Position numbers and translations under genes: made by a program. Under the pieces are notes generated by a model that ran no database searches, was not told the origin of the DNA, and worked only from the letters and a program-made list of their open reading frames with translations. Below are positions 2,854 to 15,236 of a stretch of DNA of 15,702 nucleotides, in pieces. Origin of the DNA: Elusimicrobiota bacterium (lineage in GTDB: Bacteria; Elusimicrobiota; Elusimicrobia; UBA1565); the NCBI GenBank assembly GCA_043827405.1, contig JBDRPD010000058.1:1-15702 (forward strand), given 5' to 3'. Numbering within the stretch: the first letter of the stretch is position 1; every line of letters starts with the position of its first letter.

Positions 2854-3231
2854 ATGACCAATAGAAAACGGATTCTGATCGTTGACGACGAAGCGACCAT
2901 CCGCCGGGTGCTGTCGCGGCTGCTCGCCGGCTCCGGCCACGAGATCATGACGGCCGAAGACGGGCGCGAGGCGCTCGAGATGATCCAGCAGCGTCCGCCG
3001 GACCTGGTGCTGCTCGACATCAATATGCCGCGGCTCGGCGGCATGCGGCTGCTGGAGCTGGTCAAGAAAATCCGACCCGGTCTGCCGGTGATCATGGTAA
3101 CGGGGGTCGATGATCCGGACCAGGCTCTCGCCACCATGAGCCTCGGGGCTGAAGACTACGTCACCAAGCCCTTCGACTTCGACTACATCGACACCGCAAT
3201 CAAGGCCAACCTGGCCGCACGCTGCGTCTAG
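2854..3231 (+). CDS. Single-domain response regulator receiver (CheY-like)
   Basis: RILIVDDE, DLVLLDINMP (phospho-Asp), VIMVTG, DYVTKPF. RBS GGAGG upstream. Confidence 0.93.
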   Translation: MTNRKRILIVDDEATIRRVLSRLLAGSGHEIMTAEDGREALEMIQQRPPDLVLLDINMPRLGGMRLLELVKKIRPGLPVIMVTGVDDPDQALATMSLGAEDYVTKPFDFDYIDTAIKANLAARCV

Positions 3232-3235
3232 CGAG

Positions 3236-4585
3236 TCACTTCCTGGGCTTGGTGATTTTGTATTCCTTCAGCTTGCGCCACAGGGTATTGCGGCCGATGC
3301 CGAGGCGCTTGGCGGTTTCGACCTGGTTGCCGCCGCAGATCTCGAGCGCCTTGACGATATGCTCGCGCTCGATCTCGCTGAGGCGCTGCAGCCCGCGCGC
3401 CTCGGCCGCCGCGGGCTGGGTCTCCGGCGGCAAATCCTCGACGCCGATCTCGTCTTCCGACGACATGATGACCGCGCGTTCGACCGCGTGCTCGAGCTCG
3501 CGGACATTGCCCGCCCAGACATGCGCGCGCAGCAGCTTGGCGGCGTGGGGGGAGAAGCGCAGCGCCTCCCGGCCGTGCCGGCCGCAGGCGATCTTCAGGA
3601 AGTGCTCGGCCAGAGGCAGGATGTCTTCCGGACGCTCGCGCAGCGGCGGGATCACGATGGGGAAGACGTTGAGGCGGTAGTACAGGTCATCGCGGAACGC
3701 GTTCTCATCCATCGCCTTCTTGAGGTCGCGGTTGGTGGCGGTGACGATGCGCGCGTTGACCTTGATATTGCGGTTCTCGCCGACGCGGCGAATCTCGCCC
3801 GACTGCAGCGCCCGCAGAAGCTTGACCTGCAGCGCCGGCGACATCTCGCCGATCTCGTCGAGAAACAGGGTCCCGTCCTTGGCCTCTTCGAACAAGCCGC
3901 GCTTGTTTACCACCGCGCCGGTAAACGAGCCCCGGGCATGCCCGAACAGCTCGCTTTCCAGCAGCCCCTCGGGCAGGGCGCCGCAGTTGACGGCGACGAA
4001 GGAGTTGCTGCGCCGGCCGCTGGCGGAGTGGATGGCCCGGGCGATGAGCTCCTTGCCGGTGCCGGACTCGCCTTCGATGAGCACCGAGGCGTCGGTCGCC
4101 GCGACCTTGCGCACGAGCTCCAGGACGCGGTGAAAGGCGGGGCTCACATAGACGATATTCTCGAAGCTGAACTTGCCGCGCACCTGAGCGCGCAGGTGTT
4201 CGACTTCGCGCAGCAGCCGGTTGCGCTCCAGCGCCTTATGCACCGCGATGCCCAGCGACTCGGGCTCCACCGGCTTGGTCAGATAGTCGAAGGCGCCGGC
4301 CTTCATCGCGCGCACGGCCGAATCCACCGTGCCGTGGCCCGTGATCACGATCACCTGGGCCTCGGGGCGGCGGCGCTGGGACTCCTCCAGGACTTTGAAG
4401 CCGTCGACACCCGGCATCTTGAGGTCGGTGATGACGAGGTCGAAGCTCGACTTCGCCAGCTCCTGGAGCGCTTCCTCGCCGCCCGCGACGGCCGTGACCT
4501 GGACGCCCAGGCGCTTGAGCTCCAGGTTGAGAACCGTCCGCAGCGAGGTGTCGTCTTCGGCAAAAAGCACTTTCGGCGCAGTCAT
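3236..4585 (-). CDS. Sigma54-dependent response regulator (NtrC/AtoC/ZraR family bEBP): REC + AAA+ + Fis HTH
   Basis: Receiver (AEDD, VITDLKMP, KP), Walker A GESGTGKE, ESELFGH, GSFTGA loop, Walker B LFLDEIG, DLYYRLNV, WAGNVRELE, C-terminal HTH TAKRLGIGRNTLWRKL. The start overlaps the kinase stop (ATGA). Confidence 0.96.
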   Translation of the reverse strand: MTAPKVLFAEDDTSLRTVLNLELKRLGVQVTAVAGGEEALQELAKSSFDLVITDLKMPGVDGFKVLEESQRRRPEAQVIVITGHGTVDSAVRAMKAGAFDYLTKPVEPESLGIAVHKALERNRLLREVEHLRAQVRGKFSFENIVYVSPAFHRVLELVRKVAATDASVLIEGESGTGKELIARAIHSASGRRSNSFVAVNCGALPEGLLESELFGHARGSFTGAVVNKRGLFEEAKDGTLFLDEIGEMSPALQVKLLRALQSGEIRRVGENRNIKVNARIVTATNRDLKKAMDENAFRDDLYYRLNVFPIVIPPLRERPEDILPLAEHFLKIACGRHGREALRFSPHAAKLLRAHVWAGNVRELEHAVERAVIMSSEDEIGVEDLPPETQPAAAEARGLQRLSEIEREHIVKALEICGGNQVETAKRLGIGRNTLWRKLKEYKITKPRK

Positions 4586-6222
4586 GCACCCTCCTGTTCG
4601 GCGGGCAGCGTAATCTGGATAACGCAGCCGCCTTCCGGCCCGTCCTCGATGCGGATGCGTCCGCCATGCGACGACACGATGCGTTCGGCCACGGCCAGCC
4701 CGAGCCCGGTGCCCTTCTCCTTCGTCGTGTGAAAAGGCTGAAACACCTTGGCGCGCTCCTCCGGCGGGATGCCGGGGCCGGTATCGGCCACGCGCAGCAC
4801 CGCCTTGCCGGCCTGCACCCGGGTGCTGATGGTCAGCGTCCCTTCGCCGCCCATGGCCTGGATCGCGTTGAGGAGCACGTTCCAGACCACCTGCCGTATC
4901 TGGTCGGCGTCGAAGCGAAACGCCCGCAGCTCCTTATCGAGCTCCAGCAGGATTTCGACGTCGCCCAGCGCCTCCGGCGCCGAGCGCACCATGCTCAGCG
5001 TCTCGTCGATGGCCCGGTTGAGGTCGCCGACCTCCAGGTTCTGCTCGCGCGGCCGGGCATACTGCAGAAACTGGGTCAGCGTGTCGTTGAGGCGCTTGCT
5101 CTCCTCGCGGATCACCTGCAGCAGCGTGTTCTTATCCTCGGCGGGCAGGTCGGCGCGCGAGATCGAGCTGGCGGCGGCGACGATCGAGCCGAGCGGATTG
5201 CGGATCTCATGCGCCACGACCGCCGCCATGGAGCCGACCGCGGCCAGCGATTCGTACTGCGCCAGACGGCGCTGCAGTTCCTCCTGATCGGCCAGGTCGA
5301 CCGCGTTGGAAACGAAACCGATGATGTCGTCCGCCTCGTTGCGCACCGCGGTGATCGAGATCAGGACCGGGACCTCCTCGCCGTCCTTGGTGCGGTTGAC
5401 GATGCGTCCCCGCCAGAAGCCCTGGGCCGGATCGAGGATGTCGTGCCACAGCCGCTTGTAGAGGCTCTCGGGTGTGCGGGGGGAACGGATAATGCGGGGC
5501 GTGCGGCCGACCGCCTCCTCGCGGGTATAGCCGAAGCGCCGCACGAAAGCGTCGTTGACATCAAGGACCACGCCGTGCTGATCGGTATAGAACATGAAGT
5601 CGTTGGACTTGAGGAAGGCCTGGTAAAAGGCGAGCGCCCGCCGCTCATGCTGGTTCTGCTCGGCGAGGTCGCGGCCGATGCAAAGGACGAGCTCACGGCC
5701 GCCGATGATGACCGGGTCGATGCGCAGCTCGGTATCCACCGTGCTGCCGTCCTTGCGGCTCAGCGGCGTGATCGTGGAGTCCGCGCCGCCCGCGCCGACC
5801 AAGCGGCGCAGCTCGGCGATGTCCTTCTCGCTCGCCACCAAGGCGAAAAAATCCTTGCCGAGCAATTCCCGGCGCTCGCGGCCAAGCAGGCGGCAGGCCG
5901 AGGGGTTCACGTCCACCAGCAACCCCGACTCCGGTTCATAAAGCAGGATCATATCCGCCGCCGAATCGAACAGGCGCCGGTACTTCATCTCGTTTTCCCG
6001 CAGACGGACGAACATCGGGTTGATCAGGAACAGGTAAACGGCCGCTCCGGAAGCGACGCAGGCGACCGCGGCCGCGGCGGAAAGCTGCGCCGCCCAAGCG
6101 AAATGTTCCTGGGCGCCGGCGGCATGCAGGGTAAGGAACGCCGTACCGGCGACCAGCGCCGTCACCCCCGCGAGAACCAGCACCAAGTATCCGATTTGCC
6201 GACGGTTTGTCATCACCGGCAT
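4582..6222 (-). CDS. Membrane-anchored PAS-PAS sensor histidine kinase (NtrB-like)
   Basis: Two N-terminal TM helices, two PAS/PAC domains, H-box VAHEIRNPLG, N-box NVLLNAIQAM, DTGPGI, FQPFHTTK, GTGLGL. The likely start is ATG 6222 or 6213; the ORF extension to 6369 runs through the AT-rich promoter. Confidence 0.93.
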   Translation of the reverse strand: MPVMTNRRQIGYLVLVLAGVTALVAGTAFLTLHAAGAQEHFAWAAQLSAAAAVACVASGAAVYLFLINPMFVRLRENEMKYRRLFDSAADMILLYEPESGLLVDVNPSACRLLGRERRELLGKDFFALVASEKDIAELRRLVGAGGADSTITPLSRKDGSTVDTELRIDPVIIGGRELVLCIGRDLAEQNQHERRALAFYQAFLKSNDFMFYTDQHGVVLDVNDAFVRRFGYTREEAVGRTPRIIRSPRTPESLYKRLWHDILDPAQGFWRGRIVNRTKDGEEVPVLISITAVRNEADDIIGFVSNAVDLADQEELQRRLAQYESLAAVGSMAAVVAHEIRNPLGSIVAAASSISRADLPAEDKNTLLQVIREESKRLNDTLTQFLQYARPREQNLEVGDLNRAIDETLSMVRSAPEALGDVEILLELDKELRAFRFDADQIRQVVWNVLLNAIQAMGGEGTLTISTRVQAGKAVLRVADTGPGIPPEERAKVFQPFHTTKEKGTGLGLAVAERIVSSHGGRIRIEDGPEGGCVIQITLPAEQEGA

Positions 6223-6232
6223 ATTAACATTT

Positions 6233-6270
6233 TGCACTAGATTGGAACATTGATGAACCATATCGGCACA
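6233..6270. promoter_or_regulatory. Two tandem 17-bp NtrC-like pseudo-palindromic boxes (candidate bEBP binding sites)
   Basis: TGCACTAGATTGGAACA (6233-6249) matches the NtrC site TGCACCAWWWTGGTGCA at 13/17. TGAACCATATCGGCACA (6254-6270) is a similar box. The centres are 21 bp apart. Confidence 0.55.
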
Positions 6271-6281
6271 AATTATATATA

Positions 6282-6298
6282 CTGGCGATATTGTTGCT
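6282..6298 (+). promoter_or_regulatory. Sigma54 (-24/-12) promoter for the downstream operon
   Basis: CTGGCGATATTGTTGCT has GG (6284-5), N10, GC (6296-7), fitting YTGGCACNNNNNTTGCW. It lies in the AT-rich spacer divergent from the bEBP operon; predicted TSS about 6309. Confidence 0.75.
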
Positions 6299-6339
6299 AT
6301 TATGTAATATATTGCCTTGTCCTGGCACACATTTTTACC

Positions 6340-7437
6340 ATGAATAACCCCAGTCTCGGCCTGAAGCAAAAGTCACAAAACTATCAGCTTCTGCAGGGCC
6401 GCCTCACGGCGGCCAAATGGATCAGCATGCGGGAGCCGGAAGTAGGCAGGGAGATCGCCGAGCTTGAGAAAGACTCGATGTTCCAGGATCTCCTGTACGG
6501 CGCGCCGGGGCTCAATCCGATCGTCAAGCGCATGCGCTGGCCGGCCTCGAGCATCCATTCCGGATTCTATGAGCTCAACGACGGGATAGTCGCAGCCAGC
6601 GGAGAAAGCGACATCCAGGATATTCTGCACGCCAAGGAGGAGCTCATCGAGGTAATCCGCGGCATCGGCATCGAGGCGTTCGAGAAGTATTTCCTCTACG
6701 GAGAAGAGGGCCTGCCGCTGGCGCACGCCTGCCGGGAACTCGCGCTGTCCGAAGAGCAGGGCCGCGCGATCATGGACCTGGTGCTGAAGGTCGGGACGCG
6801 TTCCGAGTTCTTTCGCCCGACCCTTTCCGCCGAGACCTCGGGCATCCGCTACCACTGCATCGCATCGATCGAGAAGGACATCCGCGAGCCGGACAACCTG
6901 TTTTTTCGCTTTCTCTCGCCGCACTGGGCGCGCGGGAAGTACGTCATCGCCTACGAGCGTCTGGAGGAATGGAAAAGCGAACGCGCCGGCGACACGGCGC
7001 AGCGGCGCCGCCTGCGCAAGCTGCTCAAGCGCGTCGAGCTCCTGAATATGCGCCAGGACACGCTCTTTCAAATCCTGTCGCGCGCGACCAATGCGCAGTC
7101 CTCGTTTCTGCGCAGCCGGATGAAAGCGCGGCGGCGTCCGCTAAGCCTGCGCGAGCTCGCCCGCCGCATCGGCGTCGCGCCGAGCACGGTCAGCCGCTCC
7201 ATCGCCAACCGCTCGGTCGAGCTCCCGTGGAGCGAGGAAGTGCCGATCAAAGAGCTGCTTTCCGGCCAGCGCGTGGTGGTGCTGTCGATTCTGCAGGACT
7301 GGCACGACGCCGGCGGCCTCGGCAAAGGCGTGACCGACGAAATGCTCATGCGCCGCCTGGCGGAGGAAACCGGGATCAACGTATCGCGGCGCACCATAAA
7401 CGACTGCCGGCGAAAGCTGCCGCACTCCGGGCCGTGA
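6340..7437 (+). CDS. Divergent, shortened sigma54 (RpoN)-like factor, 365 aa
   Basis: Region I-like Q/L-rich N-terminus (LGLKQKSQNYQLLQG...ISMREPEVGREI), RQDTL..I...Q..F segment, HTH RPLSLRELARRIGVAPSTVSRSIANR, TDEML...GINVSRRTINDCR (canonical ARRTVAKYR). ATG 6340 is preferred over 6250. Confidence 0.82.
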   Translation: MNNPSLGLKQKSQNYQLLQGRLTAAKWISMREPEVGREIAELEKDSMFQDLLYGAPGLNPIVKRMRWPASSIHSGFYELNDGIVAASGESDIQDILHAKEELIEVIRGIGIEAFEKYFLYGEEGLPLAHACRELALSEEQGRAIMDLVLKVGTRSEFFRPTLSAETSGIRYHCIASIEKDIREPDNLFFRFLSPHWARGKYVIAYERLEEWKSERAGDTAQRRRLRKLLKRVELLNMRQDTLFQILSRATNAQSSFLRSRMKARRRPLSLRELARRIGVAPSTVSRSIANRSVELPWSEEVPIKELLSGQRVVVLSILQDWHDAGGLGKGVTDEMLMRRLAEETGINVSRRTINDCRRKLPHSGP

Positions 7438-8228
7438 GCGCGCAGGGCTATTACCTGCCGCGCGAGCACGGGGGCTGGGCGCTGCTGGCCGCGCCGCCTC
7501 TCACCGGCATCGCCGCCGCCGGCGGCGGCGGCAGCACCGAGCTGTGGCTGTTCTGGGCGGCCCTGCTCGGCGCCTTCCTGCTGCGCACGCCGCTGGAAGC
7601 GTTTATCCGCCGGCCATCCGACCGCCGGGCGCTGTTTTTTCTGCTCGCCTACGGAGCGGCGGGCGGCGGCGCCGCCCTCCTGCTCATCACCCGCTACGGC
7701 CGCTGGGGACTCGCGCTCCTGGCGATCCCCGGCGTCGCGGCCATGCTGCTGCATATCCGGCTGAGCATCCGGCGGCGCGCGCAAAGCTCCCGGCAGGAAA
7801 TACTGGCCGTCGCGGTGCTGTGTCTCGGCGCGCCGGCCGCCCTGTACGTGAAGACCGGACATTTCGGCGCGCAGGCCGGCTGGCTGTGGCTGCTCAACAC
7901 CCTGTACTTCATCGGCCCGCTTTTCCACGTGAAGATGGCCATCGCCCAGTACGCTCTCATCGTCAACCGCAACGCGGAAAGGCGCTTCCGCGACCTGCGC
8001 CGGTCCGCCTGGACCTACCATGCGGCCGCGACGGCCGCCGCCGGCGCCCTGGTGTTCGCTTCCGTCGTGCCGCCGCTCGCCGGCGCGCCGTTTCTCCTCG
8101 CCGCGGGCAAGACGGTTTACCGCGGCCTGAGCGTTCCGGTATCGGACATCCGGCTCATCGGCTGGCAGGAGGTGGGCTATACGCTGCTCTTCGTCTGCCT
8201 GGTCGCGGCGGGGTACCTGGCGGGGTAG
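7434..8228 (+). CDS. YwiC-like family integral membrane protein
   Basis: GTG start overlaps the previous stop (GTGA). N-terminal LPREHGGW motif (YwiC P-x-Q/E-H-G-A/G-W), many hydrophobic segments, C-terminal IRLIGWQE. Confidence 0.8.
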   Translation: MSAQGYYLPREHGGWALLAAPPLTGIAAAGGGGSTELWLFWAALLGAFLLRTPLEAFIRRPSDRRALFFLLAYGAAGGGAALLLITRYGRWGLALLAIPGVAAMLLHIRLSIRRRAQSSRQEILAVAVLCLGAPAALYVKTGHFGAQAGWLWLLNTLYFIGPLFHVKMAIAQYALIVNRNAERRFRDLRRSAWTYHAAATAAAGALVFASVVPPLAGAPFLLAAGKTVYRGLSVPVSDIRLIGWQEVGYTLLFVCLVAAGYLAG

Positions 8229-8265
8229 CGCCGCCGATTTTTATACAATAAGCTCCGCGCCGTCC

Positions 8266-9210
8266 ATGGAACGCCTCGACCTCAAGCTCGGCTTCACCTG
8301 CAACAACCGCTGCCGCTTCTGCGTCCAAGGCGACAAGCGCGCGCGCTTCGGCGCCCGCACGTCCGCCGACATCGACGCATTCCTGCGCCGGGGACGGGCG
8401 CGCGGCGCCTCCGCTTTGGTGCTGACGGGCGGCGAGCCGACGGTTCATCCCACGCTGCCCGGCACCGTCCGCCTGGCCGCCGCCCTCGGCTTCACGACCA
8501 TCCAGATCCAGACCAACGGCCGCCGCTTTTTCTACGCCGACTATTGCCGGGAGCTGCTGGCGGCCGGCGTCACCGAATTCTCGCCCGCCCTGCACGGCTC
8601 AAGCCCGGAGATTCACGACGGGCTGACCCGCGCGCCGGGAAGCTTCCAGCAGACGCTCCAGGGCATCCGCAACCTCAAGGAGCTGGGAGCCTTCGTCCTC
8701 ACCAATACGGTCGTCACCACGCGCAACTACCGGGACCTGCCGGAGCTGGCGCGGCTCTTCACCCAGCTCGGCGTCGACCAGTTCCAGTTCGCCTTCATGC
8801 ATATCGTCGGCGAAGCCGGCGCCAACAAGGACGAGCTGACGGTGCGCAAGACCACGGCGATGCCCTTTATCCAGCGCGCGCTCGACATCGGGCGCGCGGC
8901 GGGGACCCGCTGCTACACCGAAGCGGTCCCCTACTGCCTGATGCGTGGCTATGAGGACTGCGTGGCCGAGAAGATCATTCCCCGGACCATGGTCTTTGAC
9001 GCCGAGACCATCATCGACGACTACACCCAGTACCGCCATACCGAAGGCAAGGCTAAGGGCCCGCGCTGCGCGCAGTGCCGTCACGATGCCGAATGCGAGG
9101 GCCCGTGGAAGGAATACGCGCAGATGTTCGGCTGGGAAGAGTTCAAGCCGGCAGCGCAGAAGAAAAAGAAGAGTAAGAAGAAGACGGCAAAAAAGCATGC
9201 TGAAAGATAA
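8266..9210 (+). CDS. Radical SAM protein with C-terminal Cys cluster (HxsC-like / SPASM-twitch-like)
   Basis: CNNRCRFC, LTGGEPT, IQTNGR, HDGLTR.PGSF.QT..GI, VPYC, and C-terminal CAQCRHDAECEG. Lys-rich tail. Confidence 0.9.
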   Translation: MERLDLKLGFTCNNRCRFCVQGDKRARFGARTSADIDAFLRRGRARGASALVLTGGEPTVHPTLPGTVRLAAALGFTTIQIQTNGRRFFYADYCRELLAAGVTEFSPALHGSSPEIHDGLTRAPGSFQQTLQGIRNLKELGAFVLTNTVVTTRNYRDLPELARLFTQLGVDQFQFAFMHIVGEAGANKDELTVRKTTAMPFIQRALDIGRAAGTRCYTEAVPYCLMRGYEDCVAEKIIPRTMVFDAETIIDDYTQYRHTEGKAKGPRCAQCRHDAECEGPWKEYAQMFGWEEFKPAAQKKKKSKKKTAKKHAER

Positions 9211-10147
9211 GGACGATCTGTCCTGGTACGCGCGAAAAGCAGGAAGCGCTCGCGCGGGCGAAATGGACGCCGGCCCCGCCGCCGCCGCGGCGGAGGGACC
9301 CGTCGCCGAACTGCTGGCCGAGCTCAAGCGCGACGGCAGCAAAGGCTCTTTTGCGGCCCGCACCTTGTACACCCGGCGCCTTCCTCCCGGCTGCCGCAGC
9401 TGCCTGGGCGGCAAAGGCAGCAACCTGTACGTCACCGGCCTATGCACGCGGGACTGCTTCTTCTGCTTCAACAGCAAGCCGCGCCAGGACGAGCTCGTCG
9501 TTCACGGGATCAAGGTAGAGCAGCCCGAAGAGGCGGCCGAGATCGTGACCCGCTACGGCCTGCGCAGCATCGGGATCAGCGGCGGAGAGCCGCTGCTGTT
9601 TCCCGACCGCGTGCTGCGCATCATCCGCAGCCTGCGGGCGCTCCCCGAGCGCGTCCGCATCGATCTCTACACCAACGGCGACCTCGCGACCGACGAGCTG
9701 CTGCGCCAGCTGAAAGAAGCGGGGCTCGACGCCCTGCGCTTCAACCTGGCGGCCCGCGGCTACGACACCGATCCGGTCGAGCGCGCGCTGCGCGTTTTCG
9801 CCGAGGTCACCGTCGAGATCCCCGTAATCCCGGCGGAGCTGGAGCACCAGAAGGCCATGGTGCTCGGGCTCGACGAGCTGGGCGCGCCGTTTCTCAACAT
9901 CCACGAGCTTTTCTCCTGCGCCGAAAACCGCGCCCAGGTCACCGCGGAGGGCGGCCCTGAGAAAGCGGCCGCGGACGCCTCCCTGCTGCTGTGGAAGCCG
10001 GTGCAAAACGGCGAAGAGGCGGCCCTGCGGCTGCTGCACTTCGCGCTGACGAACACCCGGCAGCTGTCCGTATATTACTGCTCCTGCCGCACGCAGGAGA
10101 CGATCAGCGAGCGCGGCCTGCGCCGCCGCAGGCGGCTGGGCCGATGA
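9197..10147 (+). CDS. Radical SAM protein, MJ0021/COG2108-like
   Basis: Probable ATG 9197 (MLKDKDD), overlapping the previous gene by 14 nt. LPPGCRSCLGG followed by LYVTGLCTRDCFFC, ISGGEPLL, LYTNG, AGLDALRFN, VEIPVIP, FLNIHE, C-terminal YYCSC. Confidence 0.85.
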   Translation: MLKDKDDLSWYARKAGSARAGEMDAGPAAAAAEGPVAELLAELKRDGSKGSFAARTLYTRRLPPGCRSCLGGKGSNLYVTGLCTRDCFFCFNSKPRQDELVVHGIKVEQPEEAAEIVTRYGLRSIGISGGEPLLFPDRVLRIIRSLRALPERVRIDLYTNGDLATDELLRQLKEAGLDALRFNLAARGYDTDPVERALRVFAEVTVEIPVIPAELEHQKAMVLGLDELGAPFLNIHELFSCAENRAQVTAEGGPEKAAADASLLLWKPVQNGEEAALRLLHFALTNTRQLSVYYCSCRTQETISERGLRRRRRLGR

Positions 10148-11016
10148 AGCGCCGCGACGCGGTCATCGTGGGCGGCGGACCGGCGGGACTGACCGCCGGC
10201 TTCTACCTGGCGCGCGCGGGCTTCAGCACGCTGCTGCTCGAAGCCGGCCAGCTCGGCGGCCGGGCGGCGCGCATTCCGACGCTCCACAACTACCCCGGCT
10301 TTCCGCTGGGCATTGCCGGCCGAACGCTGATGCGCCGCATGGTCCGGCAGGCCGCATGCTGGGGCCTCGACACGGAATGCGCGCAGGTTCGCCTGCTTGA
10401 ACACCGCGCGGACGGCTGGCGCATCGAGCTCGCGGGAGGAGAGGTCCGCCGCGGGAAGGCGGTTCTCATCGCCACCGGCACGGAGTTTCTGCCGCTCGGC
10501 GTCCCGGGCGAGCGGCCGCTTACGGGCAAGGGCGTGCGGCATGCCGTGTTCGATAACGCCCGCCGCTACGCCGGCCGGCGCGTCGGCGTGGTCGGCGGCG
10601 GCGAAGCCGCCGCGCACCAGGCGCTGGCGCTGGCGAAGCATGCGGAAAAAGTCGTACTCTTCGTGCGCGGGCGGGAGATCAAGGCGATCCGTCCGCTGCG
10701 GGACGCGCTGGCGAACAGCTCCCGCATCGAGCTGCGGCGCGGCGTGCGCGTGCGCCGCCTGCTCGGAGACCGGCGCCTTGCGGGCGTCGAGTGGGAGCGC
10801 GGCGCGCGCCGGCGGCGCGAGGAGCTGGACGCGCTGTTCGTGCTTGTGGGCCAGCGGCCGCATCTCCCGGCGCGGCGCGGGACGGGGGGGAAGCGCTCCC
10901 TGTTTATCGCGGGCGACGCGCGCCGCGGCGCGGTGCGCCATGTGGTGGCGGCGGCGGCCGACGGCATGGCGCGCGCCATGGAGTGCGAACGTTTTTTGCG
11001 AGGCTGGACGAAATGA
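10144..11016 (+). CDS. Thioredoxin-reductase-fold FAD/NAD(P) oxidoreductase lacking CxxC
   Basis: ATGA overlap. DAVIVGGGPAGLTAG, NYPGF, IATG, LGVPGE, VVGGGEAA, FIAGD. GKGVRHAVFD replaces the GVSYCATCD redox motif. Confidence 0.88.
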   Translation: MKRRDAVIVGGGPAGLTAGFYLARAGFSTLLLEAGQLGGRAARIPTLHNYPGFPLGIAGRTLMRRMVRQAACWGLDTECAQVRLLEHRADGWRIELAGGEVRRGKAVLIATGTEFLPLGVPGERPLTGKGVRHAVFDNARRYAGRRVGVVGGGEAAAHQALALAKHAEKVVLFVRGREIKAIRPLRDALANSSRIELRRGVRVRRLLGDRRLAGVEWERGARRRREELDALFVLVGQRPHLPARRGTGGKRSLFIAGDARRGAVRHVVAAAADGMARAMECERFLRGWTK

Positions 11017-11972
11017 CGCAGAGCAGATCGATCGAGATCGAAACCCGGCGGGACGTCCCGGGCGTCGGGACCCTGTATCTCGCCCGGCGGCGCGGCGATC
11101 CCGGCCGGCAGATCGAATTCATCGAAGCGACCGACCCCGGAACCCCGCGCTCCGACAAGTGGATCCTCATGATCTCCACGCAGTTCGGCTGCGCCGTCAG
11201 CTGCGCGATGTGCGACGCCGGAGCGGCGGGCTATCACGGCAACCTGACTTTGCCGGAGCTGCGCGACCAGATCCTGACGGTGTTCGACGCCCGGCCGGAG
11301 ACCGCCGCCGGCGAGGTCAAGAAGCTCAAGCTGCACTTCGCCCGCATGGGCGAGCCCAGCTTCAACCCCGAAGTCCTGCGCTGCATCGAAGAGCTGGGAA
11401 GTGAAGGCCGCCTGCCCGGGCTGGTGCCGAGCATCTCTTCCGTAGCGCCGAGCTGCCGCGGCACCCTCGACTTCTTCGAGGAGCTGTTCCGGCTCAAGGA
11501 GCGCTGGTTTTCCGGCGGCCGCTTCCAGCTGCAGTTCTCCGTGCACTCCACCGACGAAGCGGCCCGGCGCGCGCTGATCCCGATCCGCAAGTGGGACCTG
11601 GAAGACATCGCCGCCGTGGGCCGGCGCTGGTACCGCGAGGGCGACCGCCGGGTGACGCTGAACTTCGCCCTGTCCAGGGAAGCCCCCTGCGATCCCGCTA
11701 TCGTCGCGCGGCTGTTTTCGCCGCGCAGCTTTCTCATCAAGTTCACGCCGATCCATCCGACCGCGCGCGCCGACAGCAGCGGCCTGACCGCCAACTGGTA
11801 CCAAGCGCCCGAACGCATAACGTCTCTGACCTCCGAGCTGGAGCGGCGCGGCTACCAGGTCATCGTCAATGCGCCGTGGCCGGAAGAGATTCTGAGCCAT
11901 GCAAGCTGCGGCCAGCTCGCCCGCGCCGCCGCCGAACAGCCGCGCCCGGAGGCGGCGGCGCCCGCGTGCTGA
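11013..11972 (+). CDS. RlmN/Cfr-related (COG0820-like) radical SAM protein, atypical
   Basis: ATGA overlap. ISTQFGCAVSCAMC, ARMGEPSFN, LQFSVHS, C-terminal SCGQL. 319 aa, with no RlmN N-terminal helical domain evident. Confidence 0.87.
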   Translation: MTQSRSIEIETRRDVPGVGTLYLARRRGDPGRQIEFIEATDPGTPRSDKWILMISTQFGCAVSCAMCDAGAAGYHGNLTLPELRDQILTVFDARPETAAGEVKKLKLHFARMGEPSFNPEVLRCIEELGSEGRLPGLVPSISSVAPSCRGTLDFFEELFRLKERWFSGGRFQLQFSVHSTDEAARRALIPIRKWDLEDIAAVGRRWYREGDRRVTLNFALSREAPCDPAIVARLFSPRSFLIKFTPIHPTARADSSGLTANWYQAPERITSLTSELERRGYQVIVNAPWPEEILSHASCGQLARAAAEQPRPEAAAPAC

Positions 11973-12637
11973 AGCGCGCCTACGCGGCACCCGCGAACAT
12001 CGCCGCCAAGACCCGCCGCTGGATGCGCGCCCTGGCACCCTATGCGCGGCCCGCGCCCCCGCTGCGCGTCCGGCGCGCCGCCCTGCTCGTCGTCGACATG
12101 CAGACGTTCTTTCTCGACGCGGACAGCCCGGCGCGCCTGCCGGCCGCCGCGGCCGCCTTGCCCGCGATACGGCGGCTGATCGAGGCGGCCCGCGCCGCCC
12201 AGCGCCCCGTCGCCTATACCGTCTATGCGAGCGCGGCCAAATCCAGCGGCCATCCGATGCGCCGCTGGTGGCGGCGGCCCTGCCCGCCGAACAGCCGCTG
12301 GGCCAAGCTCGGGGGGGAGCTGCGCCGCGAGCGCGGCGAGAAGGTGTTTGCGAAGGCGGGCTACAGCGCTTTGCGCGCTACCCGGCTGCATGCCTGGCTC
12401 CGGACCCGCCGCATCACGGATCTGATCGTGACGGGAGTGCTGACCAACCTCTGCGTTGAGTCCACGGTGCGCGACGCTTTCGACGCCGGCTACCGCGTCT
12501 TTGTAGCCCCGGATGCCTGCGCCGCGGCGACCGAAGATATGCATCTGGGCTCGCTAAAGAATATGGTGTCGGGCTTCGCATTTGTAGAGCAAACACAAAA
12601 GCTTTTTGCTACCATGACGAATCGTCGTGGAGGATAA
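11966..12637 (+). CDS. Isochorismatase/cysteine hydrolase family amidohydrolase
   Basis: GTG 11966 overlaps the previous stop. ALLVVDMQ (Asp), FAKAGYSAL (Lys) and GVLTNLCVESTVRDAFD (Cys) show an intact catalytic triad. Confidence 0.9.
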   Translation: MLKRAYAAPANIAAKTRRWMRALAPYARPAPPLRVRRAALLVVDMQTFFLDADSPARLPAAAAALPAIRRLIEAARAAQRPVAYTVYASAAKSSGHPMRRWWRRPCPPNSRWAKLGGELRRERGEKVFAKAGYSALRATRLHAWLRTRRITDLIVTGVLTNLCVESTVRDAFDAGYRVFVAPDACAAATEDMHLGSLKNMVSGFAFVEQTQKLFATMTNRRGG

Positions 12638-14611
12638 ATGCAGCGCCTGTTGCTAACCACTGTTTGCCGTCCGATCGGCCCCGCCCAGGGCGACGCCCCG
12701 AGCGTGGGCTACGAGCTCCTGTACGGCCAGGTTACGCGCGCCCAGGGCGTCTTCAGCCCCCGCGCCACCCATGTCCAGTACGGCCTCGAGTATATCGCCA
12801 ATAACGTCGACGCCCCGACCACCGTTTTGCAGTATCCTTCGCGCCGCCAGCTGATCCGTGAGCTCAAGAAGGGCTACGACTATATCGGCATCGCCTTCAT
12901 CATGGCGACTTTTCATCACCTGAAGAGGATCGTGGCGCTGGTGCGCAAGCACTCGCCGCAGACCAAGATCGTGCTCGGCGGCTACGGCACCATCATGAGC
13001 GACGAGGAGCTCGCGCCCTACTCCGACCATATCTGCCGCGAGGAGGGCGTCGCCTATACGCGCCGCCTGCTCGGCGAGCCGGAAAAGAAGATGCCCTACG
13101 ATCATCCGACGGTGATCAGCAAGCTCAAGGTGTTCTCCATTCCGAGCAGCCGCACCGGCATGGTCTTCGCGGGGCTGGGCTGCGCCAACGGCTGCGATTT
13201 CTGCTGCACCTCGCACTTCTTCAAGCGGCGGCACATCCGCCTGCTGCCGACCGGCAAGGACATCTTCGACGTGCTGTGCCGCTATCAGAGCGAGCACGGC
13301 GTCGAGCAGTTCACCATCCTCGATGAGGACTTTCTGCTCAACAAAAAGCGCGCCATGGAGCTGCGCGCATGCTGCGTGCGCGAAAACCGCACCTTCTCCA
13401 TCTTCGCCTTCGCCAGCGTCCGCGCCCTCAACCAGTATACGCCCAAGGAGCTGCTGGAGATGGGCGTCGACGGGCTGTGGATCGGCTATGAAGGGACGCG
13501 CGCGGGCTACGACAAACAGAAGGGCGGCAAGCAGCCCGCCGAGCTGTTCCCGGAGCTGCGCCGCCACGGCATCCTGATTCTCGCCTCGATGATCGTCGGC
13601 TTCGACTATCAGGACCAGGAAGTAACCGCCGCCGAGCTGCGCGGGCTGCTGCGCCTGCGGCCGACGCTCGCCCAGTTCCTGATCTACGGCCCGACCCCGG
13701 GCACCCCGTTCTACGACCGGGTCATCAAAGAGGGGCGCATGCGGCCGGAGGTCTTCTCCGATCCCGACAATTACCGCCGCGAAGCCACGGGCTTCCGCTC
13801 CATGGTCACCCACCCCAAGATGTCCGCCGAGGAGATCGAGGGCCTGCAGCGCTGGTGCTTCGAGCGCGACTATCAGAGCCTCGGACCGTCGATGTTCCGC
13901 TCGATCCGGGAATGGCTCAGCGGCTTCGAGAACCTGCGCGCGTCGTCGAGCGTTATGCTGCGCCGCAAGGCCCTGCGCTTCGGCCGCGAAGTGCGCCGGG
14001 CCTATCCGCTGTTTTTGGCCGGCCGGATATTCGCCCCCAACAAACGGATCCGCCGCTGGCTCAAGGCTTTCGAGAAGCGCGCGCACCGGGACCTCGGCGC
14101 TCCCTCGCTGTGGGAGCAGGCGCTCTCTTTCGCCGCCGTCGGCGCCGCGGCCTGGACCCAATTCACGCTGCAGTTCGACTACTTCCAGCATCCGCGCCTG
14201 CCCATCGTCCGCCACCGCTGGGAAGGCCTGAGCGAGAAGTTCATGCGGCTGTGGGGTGAGGTCCGCGACGGCGGCCGAGCGGCCGAGCTCAAGGTGCTGT
14301 TCCAGCGCCGCCAGGCCGAGGGCTTCTCCTGGCTGCGGCTGGAAGGCGCGATGGATGAGAAGAACATGAAGCAGCTCAAGCGCCGCCTCAAGGCTTCGCT
14401 CAAGAGCGGACGCGAGCGCTTTGAAGTCAGCCTGGAGCACATCCAGTATGTGGACCGCAAAGGCCTCACCATGTTCTACAAGGTATTCCGCAAGTACCGG
14501 CGCTCCATGCGCCTCCAGCTGCCCGAAAGGCTGCCGGTTAAGGCTCCGGAGCTGAGCCGCGTGCTCCGCTACTTCACGCGCTGCGCGGGCCTGGGCTCGG
14601 CGCCCTCGTGA
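12638..14611 (+). CDS. Cobalamin-binding-domain radical SAM protein with C-terminal STAS-like domain
   Basis: RBS GGAGGA. N-terminal Rossmann-like segment (YDYIGIAF...KIVLGGYG), GCANGCDFC, ILDEDF, IGYE, IVGFD, PTPGTPFY. The tail LRLEGAMD...VSLEHIQYVDRKGL resembles STAS. Confidence 0.88.
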   Translation: MQRLLLTTVCRPIGPAQGDAPSVGYELLYGQVTRAQGVFSPRATHVQYGLEYIANNVDAPTTVLQYPSRRQLIRELKKGYDYIGIAFIMATFHHLKRIVALVRKHSPQTKIVLGGYGTIMSDEELAPYSDHICREEGVAYTRRLLGEPEKKMPYDHPTVISKLKVFSIPSSRTGMVFAGLGCANGCDFCCTSHFFKRRHIRLLPTGKDIFDVLCRYQSEHGVEQFTILDEDFLLNKKRAMELRACCVRENRTFSIFAFASVRALNQYTPKELLEMGVDGLWIGYEGTRAGYDKQKGGKQPAELFPELRRHGILILASMIVGFDYQDQEVTAAELRGLLRLRPTLAQFLIYGPTPGTPFYDRVIKEGRMRPEVFSDPDNYRREATGFRSMVTHPKMSAEEIEGLQRWCFERDYQSLGPSMFRSIREWLSGFENLRASSSVMLRRKALRFGREVRRAYPLFLAGRIFAPNKRIRRWLKAFEKRAHRDLGAPSLWEQALSFAAVGAAAWTQFTLQFDYFQHPRLPIVRHRWEGLSEKFMRLWGEVRDGGRAAELKVLFQRRQAEGFSWLRLEGAMDEKNMKQLKRRLKASLKSGRERFEVSLEHIQYVDRKGLTMFYKVFRKYRRSMRLQLPERLPVKAPELSRVLRYFTRCAGLGSAPS

Positions 14612-14615
14612 TGAC

Positions 14616-15236
14616 GTGAGCGCCTCGTACGTCTACCGCTACCAGGACGCGCTCTACGTCAACCTGACCAACCGCTGTCCGACGTCGTGCGTCTTCTGCG
14701 TGAAGGGTCCTTACCGCATGGATTATCGCGGGCTGGACCTCAGCCTCGGCGCGGAGCCCACAACCGAGCAGATCATGATGTCCCTGCGCGAGCAGGCGCC
14801 CTTGAGCGAGCTGGTCTTCTGCGGCTACGGCGAATCCACCTACCGCATGCCGGAGCTTATGGAAGTAAGCCGGACCGTACGCGCTGAATTCAAGGTCCCC
14901 GTACGGCTCAACACCATCGGCCTCGGCAGCCTGATCAATGGACGCGACATCAGCCAAGACCTGGCGGCCTGCCTTGACGCCGTCTCCATCAGCCTCAACA
15001 CGGCCGATCCGGAAAGCTGGCTGCGCCTGCATCGCCCACTGCCGGAATTCCGCAAAGAGGGCTTCGCCGCCGTCCTCGACTTCACCCGCGCCTGCGTCCG
15101 CGGCGGGCTCAGGACCGTCGCAACCGCCGTCGACTACCCGGAAAACGACCTCGCGGCCGTGGAAGCCCTGGCCGGCGAGCTCGGCGCCGCTTTCCGCCTG
15201 CGCCCCCGCCTCGAAGACGAGTGGAAAAAAGCCTGA
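14616..15236 (+). CDS. TatD-associated-type radical SAM protein (TIGR04038/TIGR04100-like)
   Basis: Y.Y...LYVNLTNRCPTSCVFC, ELVFCGYGE, VRLNT.GLGSLINGRD, SISLN, FRLR near the C-terminus. 206 aa, GTG start 4 nt after the previous stop. Confidence 0.88.
   Translation: MSASYVYRYQDALYVNLTNRCPTSCVFCVKGPYRMDYRGLDLSLGAEPTTEQIMMSLREQAPLSELVFCGYGESTYRMPELMEVSRTVRAEFKVPVRLNTIGLGSLINGRDISQDLAACLDAVSISLNTADPESWLRLHRPLPEFRKEGFAAVLDFTRACVRGGLRTVATAVDYPENDLAAVEALAGELGAAFRLRPRLEDEWKKA

Follow-up and report, generated by a model that had tools for sequence, protein, structure and literature searches.

The window, as the whole analysed stretch of 15,702 nucleotides of Elusimicrobiota DNA is called here, belongs to a 98% complete genome (the source genome, G000) and carries a gene for a compact sigma54, which stands divergent from a histidine kinase gene and a bEBP gene and ahead of a run of genes on its own strand (Table 1). 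The 365-aa reading frame, its RpoN-box counterpart and the altered -12-side helix-turn-helix were all found as the initial annotation had described them. A longer start at 6250 (395 aa) was ruled out, since homologues of 344-400 aa align from M1 and since the promoter-like site would otherwise fall within the extension.

Table 1. Features of the compact sigma54 locus, in positions of the window.
Feature	Position	Strand	Basis or remark
NtrC-type bEBP: receiver, AAA+ with GSFTGA loop at 3914-3931, Fis-type HTH	3236..4585	-	domain search
Divergent PAS-PAS histidine kinase; start codon 6222 or 6213 uncertain	4582..6222	-	domain search; second PAS closest to Aer/NifL-type
-24/-12 promoter-like site TGGC-N7-TTGCT	6283..6298	+	57 nt before ATG; only match in window; start predicted near 6309
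Compact sigma54, clade A of short family (P0001, 365 aa)	6340..7437	+	Pfam, fold matches, alignment, tree
Region I-like segment, residues 1-50, two helices; predicted activator-contact and inhibitory region	6340..6489	+	model, sub-threshold HMM
Short non-acidic linker replacing Region II, 38 aa	6490..6603	+	boundaries set from model
Five-helix middle domain, residues 89-157; predicted half-size core-binding domain	6604..6810	+	model, profile comparison, complex prediction
Extra-long helix, residues 219-252; R238 = E. coli R336	6994..7095	+	model and alignment
-12-side helix-turn-helix; S282/R286 = E. coli S379/R383; A280/P281 instead of H377/E378	7141..7203	+	alignment
RpoN domain with box SRRTINDCR at 7384-7410; R350/R351 = E. 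coli R455/R456; C356 instead of Y461	7267..7419	+	alignment, structure match
Downstream genes: YwiC-like, HxsC-like rSAM, rSAM, TrxB-like, RlmN-like rSAM, isochorismatase, B12 rSAM, TatD-linked rSAM	7434..15236	+	domain search

The only Pfam domain recognised in the 365-aa protein was the sigma54 DNA-binding domain PF04552 (residues 232-360, 48.9 bits for a cut-off of 22.8), which was matched in 65/65 members of the short family. In the HMM search that had been proposed with the initial annotation, PF04963 and PF00309 gave no match in the protein at E<=0.1 and none genome-wide at E<=1, which bears out the remark that the core-binding region is barely recognisable. The NCBIfam rpoN equivalog TIGR02395 reached 62.7 bits, under its curated cut-off of 277.35. 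When an AlphaFold model built from a 65-sequence alignment (pLDDT 85) was searched with Foldseek, all 22 matches at E<=0.001 were sigma54 chains, and the best structural match was A. aeolicus sigmaN (PDB 5UI5; Z 11.4, rmsd 7.1, 182 residues aligned, over residues 172-365). The DNA-binding half of the compact sigma54 is intact, and about half of its core-binding domain appears to be missing.

The N-terminal segment forms helices at residues 6-29 and 32-44 in the model, and a structural alignment to 5nsr_M begins at residue 17 (Z 8.1, rmsd 8.7, 225 aligned). The likeness to Region I claimed in the initial annotation can be seen in the alignment and shows up as an HMM segment below threshold, but gave no significant sequence match. 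In the linker that follows, 2 of 38 residues are D/E, against 17 of 64 in E. coli Region II. Further along the protein, APSTVSRS (7177-7200) aligns with E. coli HESTISR (377-383) and the box SRRTINDCR with ARRTVAKYR (454-462), R357 corresponding to R462. In an alignment of 228 rows of the family, which holds some redundancy, R238 was retained in 94%, S282 in 92%, R286 in 100%, R350 in 88%, R351 in 97% and R357 in 94%. The RpoN-box consensus is not matched in full, with N at the A459 position in 52% and Y461 kept in 55% of the rows. R455/R456 have been named for reading the -24 element and H377/S379/R383 for the -12 GC (PMC9770992), an R336-type residue has been named for activator dependence (PMC7057263), and an R456 substitution alters -24 specificity (PMC12096077). 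The base-reading arginine pair is spared by the box changes, because the R455/R456 equivalents are kept. At the H377 position the compact sigma54 has A, and H stands there in 17% of the rows, so that, by alignment, one of the three named -12 contacts is lost. The E. coli variant AC461/462 has an in-vivo activity of 0 (PMC2715252), a comparison to be read with the caveat that it changes R462 too, whose equivalent is kept in the compact sigma54.

The middle domain comprises five helices in about 70 residues, compared with about 130 for the canonical core-binding domain. The match between the family profile and canonical sigma54 (99.9%) begins at residue 123 (E. coli 228) and takes in E. coli 228-257, while the middle domain alone gave a weak match to the canonical profile at E. 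coli 156-185 (56%, E 1e-4, 27 columns). It may thus be inferred that a helix pair present in two similar copies in the canonical core-binding domain occurs once in the short form. Folded alone (residues 84-166, pLDDT 76.5), the domain gave no Foldseek match at E<=0.001; in a VIA search its best match was COMMD at Z 6.0 and there were no sigma54 chains among the best 50 matches listed, which neither shows nor excludes kinship. A complex was also predicted for the middle domain with pieces of the beta and beta' subunits encoded in the same genome (rpoB/rpoC on contig C26), beta from the flap to its C-terminus and beta' over its N-terminal 421 residues, giving a score of 0.62 against 0.00 for the best of three controls, with a between-run contact agreement of at least 64% and a partner pLDDT of at least 69. 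The mark used for this score was reached by 116/157 solved pairs and 2/215 mismatched pairs, a calibration set that the three-chain job is unlike. The predicted contacts, in piece numbering at beta 72-87, 361-377 and 414-423 and beta' 57-69 and 384-393, can be read as the flap tip, the beta C-terminus, the beta' zinc-binding domain and the dock, the same list as that given for the contact surfaces of the core-binding domain on polymerase (PMC5095919). The structural check suggested by the initial annotation accordingly came out in favour as far as the model matches sigma54 only; the complex score supports docking on polymerase, and may reflect memory of solved sigma-polymerase structures.

The close homologues that bear names are labelled Elusimicrobia or Elusimicrobiota. 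The source genome holds two PF04552 genes, namely that of the 365-aa protein and, on contig C91, that of a paralogue of 344 aa with about 30% identity, and profile searches of this 98% complete genome found no canonical rpoN, the second copy that the initial annotation had wished to see checked. Across the phylum, 73/251 genomes matched the family profile, 72 of them with the short form and one, G111, with canonical RpoN; most of the negatives come from two families of small genomes (1/71 and 0/84 match), and within the order 38/41 genomes matched. The canonical rpoN of G111 (contig C163, L008), the only one among the 251 genomes, encodes 461 aa with all three domains; its nearest named relatives include Omnitrophota, no bEBP was found in G111 at E<=1e-40, and transfer or misbinning are suggested alternatives for its presence. 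A profile search of the short family returned 372 clusters at E<=1e-30, and an ESM Atlas structure search showed Elusimicrobiota clusters and added a predominantly Chloroflexota one (TM 0.86). Two other structure rows of that search (6 and 8) are clusters of about 370-390 aa, mostly from Pseudomonadota, with a sigma54 DNA-binding domain and in some cases GIY-YIG. In viral contigs, no canonical rpoN relative was found with the E. coli query.

In a tree of the C-terminal 200 residues, 32 short and 20 canonical sequences were split at 100/100; this tree is unrooted and built from chosen sequences, the canonical sample coming from one search plus E. coli, and it does not fix the direction of change. 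As judged from these sequences, the short form is a separate sigma54 clade replacing the standard form in the Elusimicrobiota genomes searched. The proposal of a lineage-specific sigma54 class agrees with this split, and that of a dedicated paralogue with the two short paralogues, the lack of a canonical rpoN and the conservation of the protein's own kinase-bEBP cassette. Short length had been offered as a further mark: the median is indeed 360 aa in 120 short sequences against 466 in 117 canonical ones sampled, but length is not diagnostic alone. Short Aquificota sigma54 proteins (a 369-aa cluster) are of similar length and keep the Pfam core-binding domain in 98% of members, whereas PF04963 is not among the 25 commonest families of 65 short-clade members. 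The long forms P0081, P0161, P0187 and P0192 look like read-throughs or chimeras.

With regard to the genes around the compact sigma54, the second PAS domain of the kinase has 3ewk, Aer (8dik) and NifL (2gj3) as its closest entries, PAS domains which we take to bind FAD and sense redox. In the other clade-A loci (n=31), the kinase was matched in 30 and the bEBP in 28. At the genome level, a bEBP was detected in 67/72 genomes with a short sigma and a short sigma in 67/68 genomes with a bEBP, counts that leave out G111 and one small fragment and that come from kin genomes, which are not independent. Moreover, 67/113 short-sigma matches lie within 3 kb of a bEBP, and a GAFTGA-type loop was present in 51/57 neighbouring bEBP frames, six not having been extracted. 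On the other side, the first downstream gene overlaps the sigma stop codon (GTGA), and the downstream genes are likely to be co-transcribed with the compact sigma54 in the source genome. In the 31 other clade-A loci, YwiC was found in 3, the TatD-linked rSAM in 2 and the second rSAM in 1; no conserved downstream operon was found. The initial description of a gene heading its own metabolic operon therefore fits the source genome and not the other loci, where the kinase-bEBP pair is conserved and the downstream genes mostly are not; its observation that the context differs from that of lptB/hpf/ptsN was correct. By gene order across these loci, what is conserved is the divergent cassette of PAS kinase and bEBP rather than the operon that follows. 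Between 8266 and 15236 there are five radical SAM genes (HxsC4-like, unassigned, RlmN-like, B12-binding with a STAS-like tail, and TatD-linked) along with the TrxB-like and isochorismatase genes; a TrxB-like/RlmN-like pair also lies near short sigmas in two other loci (L054, L055), and in G283 the pyruvate:ferredoxin oxidoreductase (PFOR) gene has a relative of the unassigned rSAM ahead of it. A stand-alone receiver-domain gene (2854-3231, +) converges on the bEBP, further left of which are an XRE-type HTH gene (1892-2218, -) and an NrfD/DsrP-like gene (122-1099).

The promoter-like site before the gene is weak evidence alone, as 43/200 shuffles also have one; it is predicted to be the autoregulatory promoter of the compact sigma54 gene. 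In the whole family (83 loci), TGGC-N7-(T/C)TGC was found within 150 nt of the gene in 12 loci and at none of six other spacings. Upstream of the clade-A gene, GGC-N7-TTGC was found in 25/32 loci (each from a different genome, three duplicates excluded), compared with 0/32 for six other spacer lengths, and 7/32 loci had no such site; among loci fetched after the motif was first noticed, the site was present in 18/23. A matrix built from 25 sites of other genomes was scanned over the source genome and gave its top ranks to PFOR (promoter at C66:84048), the compact sigma54 gene and rnfB. Genome-wide it matched 39 times, against 8-49 with wrong spacers, which is no excess, so that only the top-ranked sites are meaningful. 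In the source genome, sites in A+T-rich stretches precede the nifJ-type PFOR, the por operon, rnfB-PFOR-like-rnfC and a dsrL-like/dsrC/dsrM/dsrK-like cluster. The gene between rnfB and rnfC encodes a 1377-aa PFOR-like protein (G000:C87:76281-80411; L140:2281-6411). The last cluster (G000:C105:45158-49995; L141) consists of dsrL-like, dsrC, RsbRD-domain, dsrM-like and dsrK-like genes after a CobB-type amidase, and these genes, together with the NrfD/DsrP-like gene, suggest a Dsr sulfur pathway in an Elusimicrobiota genome.

The PFOR promoter allowed a comparison between genomes: 28 genomes of the order have PFOR, of which 26 with upstream DNA were used (G180 and G279 were dropped). A site was present before PFOR in 16/17 genomes with an intact clade-A gene and in 1/9 without it. 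With the first, stricter pattern the result was 12/17 versus 1/9, the relaxation having been made after the data were seen, and the genomes are kin, with 5/9 negatives from one genus. The five genomes of that genus (L189, L191, L192, L195, L199) carry, at the place of the PFOR site, TTGGCA-17 nt-TAAAAT with sigma70-like spacing; the TTGGCA that serves there as a -35-like box before TAAAAT could come from a sigma54 promoter turned into a sigma70 type. Exceptions were G286 (91% complete), with a PFOR site but no clade-A gene, and G283, in which the clade-A gene is present and PFOR lies inside an operon. A similar comparison for rnfB, matched in 3/41 genomes, was too small to inform. In G279 an AGGC-type site is visible by eye. 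In G270, one of the nine genomes counted as lacking an intact clade-A gene and itself without a PFOR site, the clade-A sigma gene is split over two reading frames (L239, G270:C68:891-1989).

The paralogue on contig C91 (G000:C91:7338-8372; L006) is a second short sigma54 and belongs to clade B, which has 100/100 support. A second bEBP of the source genome (G000:C38:1298-2514; L007) lacks a Fis-type HTH. The two clades differ in the sites of their loci: YGGCA-N6-TTG(C/A)TC occurs at 29 sites in 19/30 clade-B loci versus one in 32 clade-A loci, and the A-type TTGC(A/T)(A/T) at 35 sites in 24/32 clade-A loci versus 5 in 4/30 clade-B loci, patterns partly drawn from the same loci, only 3/10 later B loci having had a site. 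The clade-B-type pattern was present in G180, G090 and G176 and not in G142 or G088, both without short sigmas. In the source genome, TTGATC/TTGATA sites (GG-N10-GA) lie ahead of a VIT-vWA gene that diverges from the gene for the HTH-less bEBP, of an Lnt gene at the C91 locus and of a gene for a DUF2339 membrane protein; the genes behind the TTGATC sites are of envelope type (VIT-vWA with rhomboid, Lnt, DUF2339). The shifted -12 element is associated with clade B, not clade A. At the HTH position of E. coli S382, which is S285 in the compact sigma54, there is S in 30/30 clade-A and N in 30/30 clade-B sequences, a difference that may cause that of the -12 elements. For the present copy, the altered promoter specificity raised in the initial annotation found no support, since the protein retains the arginines that read the bases and its associated sites are of the ordinary -24/-12 type; altered -24 specificity was rejected on the R455/R456 equivalents together with the clade-A sites.

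The reading that we favour, with a probability of roughly 80%, is that the compact sigma54 is a working activator-dependent sigma factor on ordinary -24/-12 promoters, opened by the bEBP and driving its own gene and anaerobic energy genes. Direct support comes from its domain content, its clade, the conserved cassette, and promoter-like sites that are conserved and co-vary with the gene. That the protein binds polymerase and depends on the bEBP, that kinase and bEBP form a pair and that the signal is redox are predictions, as is the regulon. The PAS kinase would sense a low redox state and, from gene order and conservation, would phosphorylate the adjacent bEBP; this would in turn remodel Region I of the compact sigma54 holoenzyme at -24/-12 promoters, as the conserved residues and the established pathway (PMC7057263, PMC11839083) lead one to expect. 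The half-size middle domain would bind RNA polymerase, and the outputs predicted from the sites would be the sigma gene itself and anaerobic energy operons such as that of PFOR.

It is improbable that the protein is a working sigma factor for which the AAA+ activator is not needed, or only in part, the channel-blocking Region II and half of the core-binding domain being gone. The 38-aa linker is in fact not acidic, the middle domain has about 70 aa versus about 130, and a charge switch with the acidic Region II has been proposed as part of activator action (PMC11839083). However, the protein retains the R336 equivalent and helices resembling those of Region I, bEBPs with intact loops come and go together with the sigma gene, and only 5/72 genomes have the sigma without a detected bEBP. 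We give very little credence to a misassigned regulon, in which sigma54 function is real but the other paralogue, alone or together with this one, reads the PFOR/Rnf/Dsr promoters. G286 without clade A, the five A-type sites in 4/30 clade-B loci and the rnfB comparison of only three genomes leave room for it; on the other hand, the clade-B-only genomes G090 and G176 have no PFOR site, and of TTG(C/A)TC, with 29 sites in 19/30 clade-B loci, only one was found in 32 clade-A loci.

Equally slim is the chance that the protein is a DNA-binding repressor or antagonist, occupying -24/-12 sites without polymerase in the manner of truncated RpoN remnants. Its core-binding domain is not recognisable by Pfam, its DNA-binding half is intact and the sites before its own gene would fit autorepression. 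Yet canonical sigma54 is absent from the 98% complete genome and occurs once in 251 phylum genomes, and the activators would be left without a partner; genomes without the clade-A gene include five of one genus with the sigma70-like TTGGCA-17-TAAAAT before PFOR, and the middle domain is predicted to dock on polymerase. The antagonist considered in the initial annotation is thus disfavoured, because the genome has no canonical sigma54 for it to act against and the promoter sites follow the presence of the gene. Truncated Neisseria RpoN remnants likewise have missing Pfam domains (PMC12316311), but those lose the DNA-binding domain too, whereas the short clade is full-frame, conserved end to end and has kept its activators.

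Compared with canonical sigma54 (E. coli RpoN, 477 aa; A. aeolicus sigmaN), the compact sigma54 shares the succession of a Region I-like segment, a linker, a middle domain, the extra-long helix, the HTH and the RpoN domain, the equivalents of R336, S379, R383, R455, R456 and R462, the strictly spaced -24/-12 sites and partner bEBPs with a GAFTGA-type loop. It differs in the non-acidic 38-aa linker and the five-helix middle domain of about 70 aa without PF04963, in the H377/E378 and A459/K460/Y461 positions, which vary in the short clade, in the long branch between the two forms, and in adjoining its bEBP, while the canonical gene lies in an lptB-hpf-ptsN context. Several sigma54 copies, each with a cognate bEBP, are also found in Cereibacter (Rhodobacter) sphaeroides (RpoN1-4), where specificity is tied to the base beside the -12 GC and the activator FleT has no DNA-binding domain; RpoN1/RpoN2 are a known precedent for a promoter split between paralogues (PMC11999139). 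The second bEBP of the source genome resembles FleT in having no DNA-binding HTH. Unlike in C. sphaeroides, both copies here are of the short clade, and clade-B sites often turn the conserved GC into GA.

Since surveys recognise rpoN by the joint presence of the three Pfam domains (PMC12316311), and the core-binding domain has been described as the most highly conserved part of sigma54 (PMC5095919), the short clade would be missed or left hypothetical in them. It is, by its sequence, homologous to sigma54 and predicted to work alike, yet falls outside a definition by the canonical core-binding domain and the full RpoN box. A term search of the text of that survey (PMC12316311) gave no mention of Elusimicrobia, and of Elusimicrobiota only E. 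minutum is mentioned in the text seen of PMC3162934. No published description of the short clade was found in the titles and listings of the open literature searched, and supplementary survey tables may list such proteins.

If it works as predicted, the compact sigma54 would offer a natural minimal sigma54 for testing the roles of Region II and of half the core-binding domain in activator release and promoter escape, and a first regulatory handle on the anaerobic energy metabolism of free-living Elusimicrobiota. A wider reading is put forward tentatively, with the odds well against it: that the short clade is a second deep-branching sigma54 architecture whose core-binding domain is a single module, perhaps as it stood before an internal duplication produced the canonical two-subdomain form, and in which the lack of an acidic Region II would entail a different activator release and promoter escape. 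Clades A and B would then form a natural orthogonal pair, B reading GG-N10-GA and GG-N10-GC through the fixed Ser-to-Asn change in the HTH recognition helix. Already on the main prediction, the two sigma/bEBP/promoter sets would offer a natural pair differing at -12, of a kind that engineers now construct by mutating R456 (PMC12096077).
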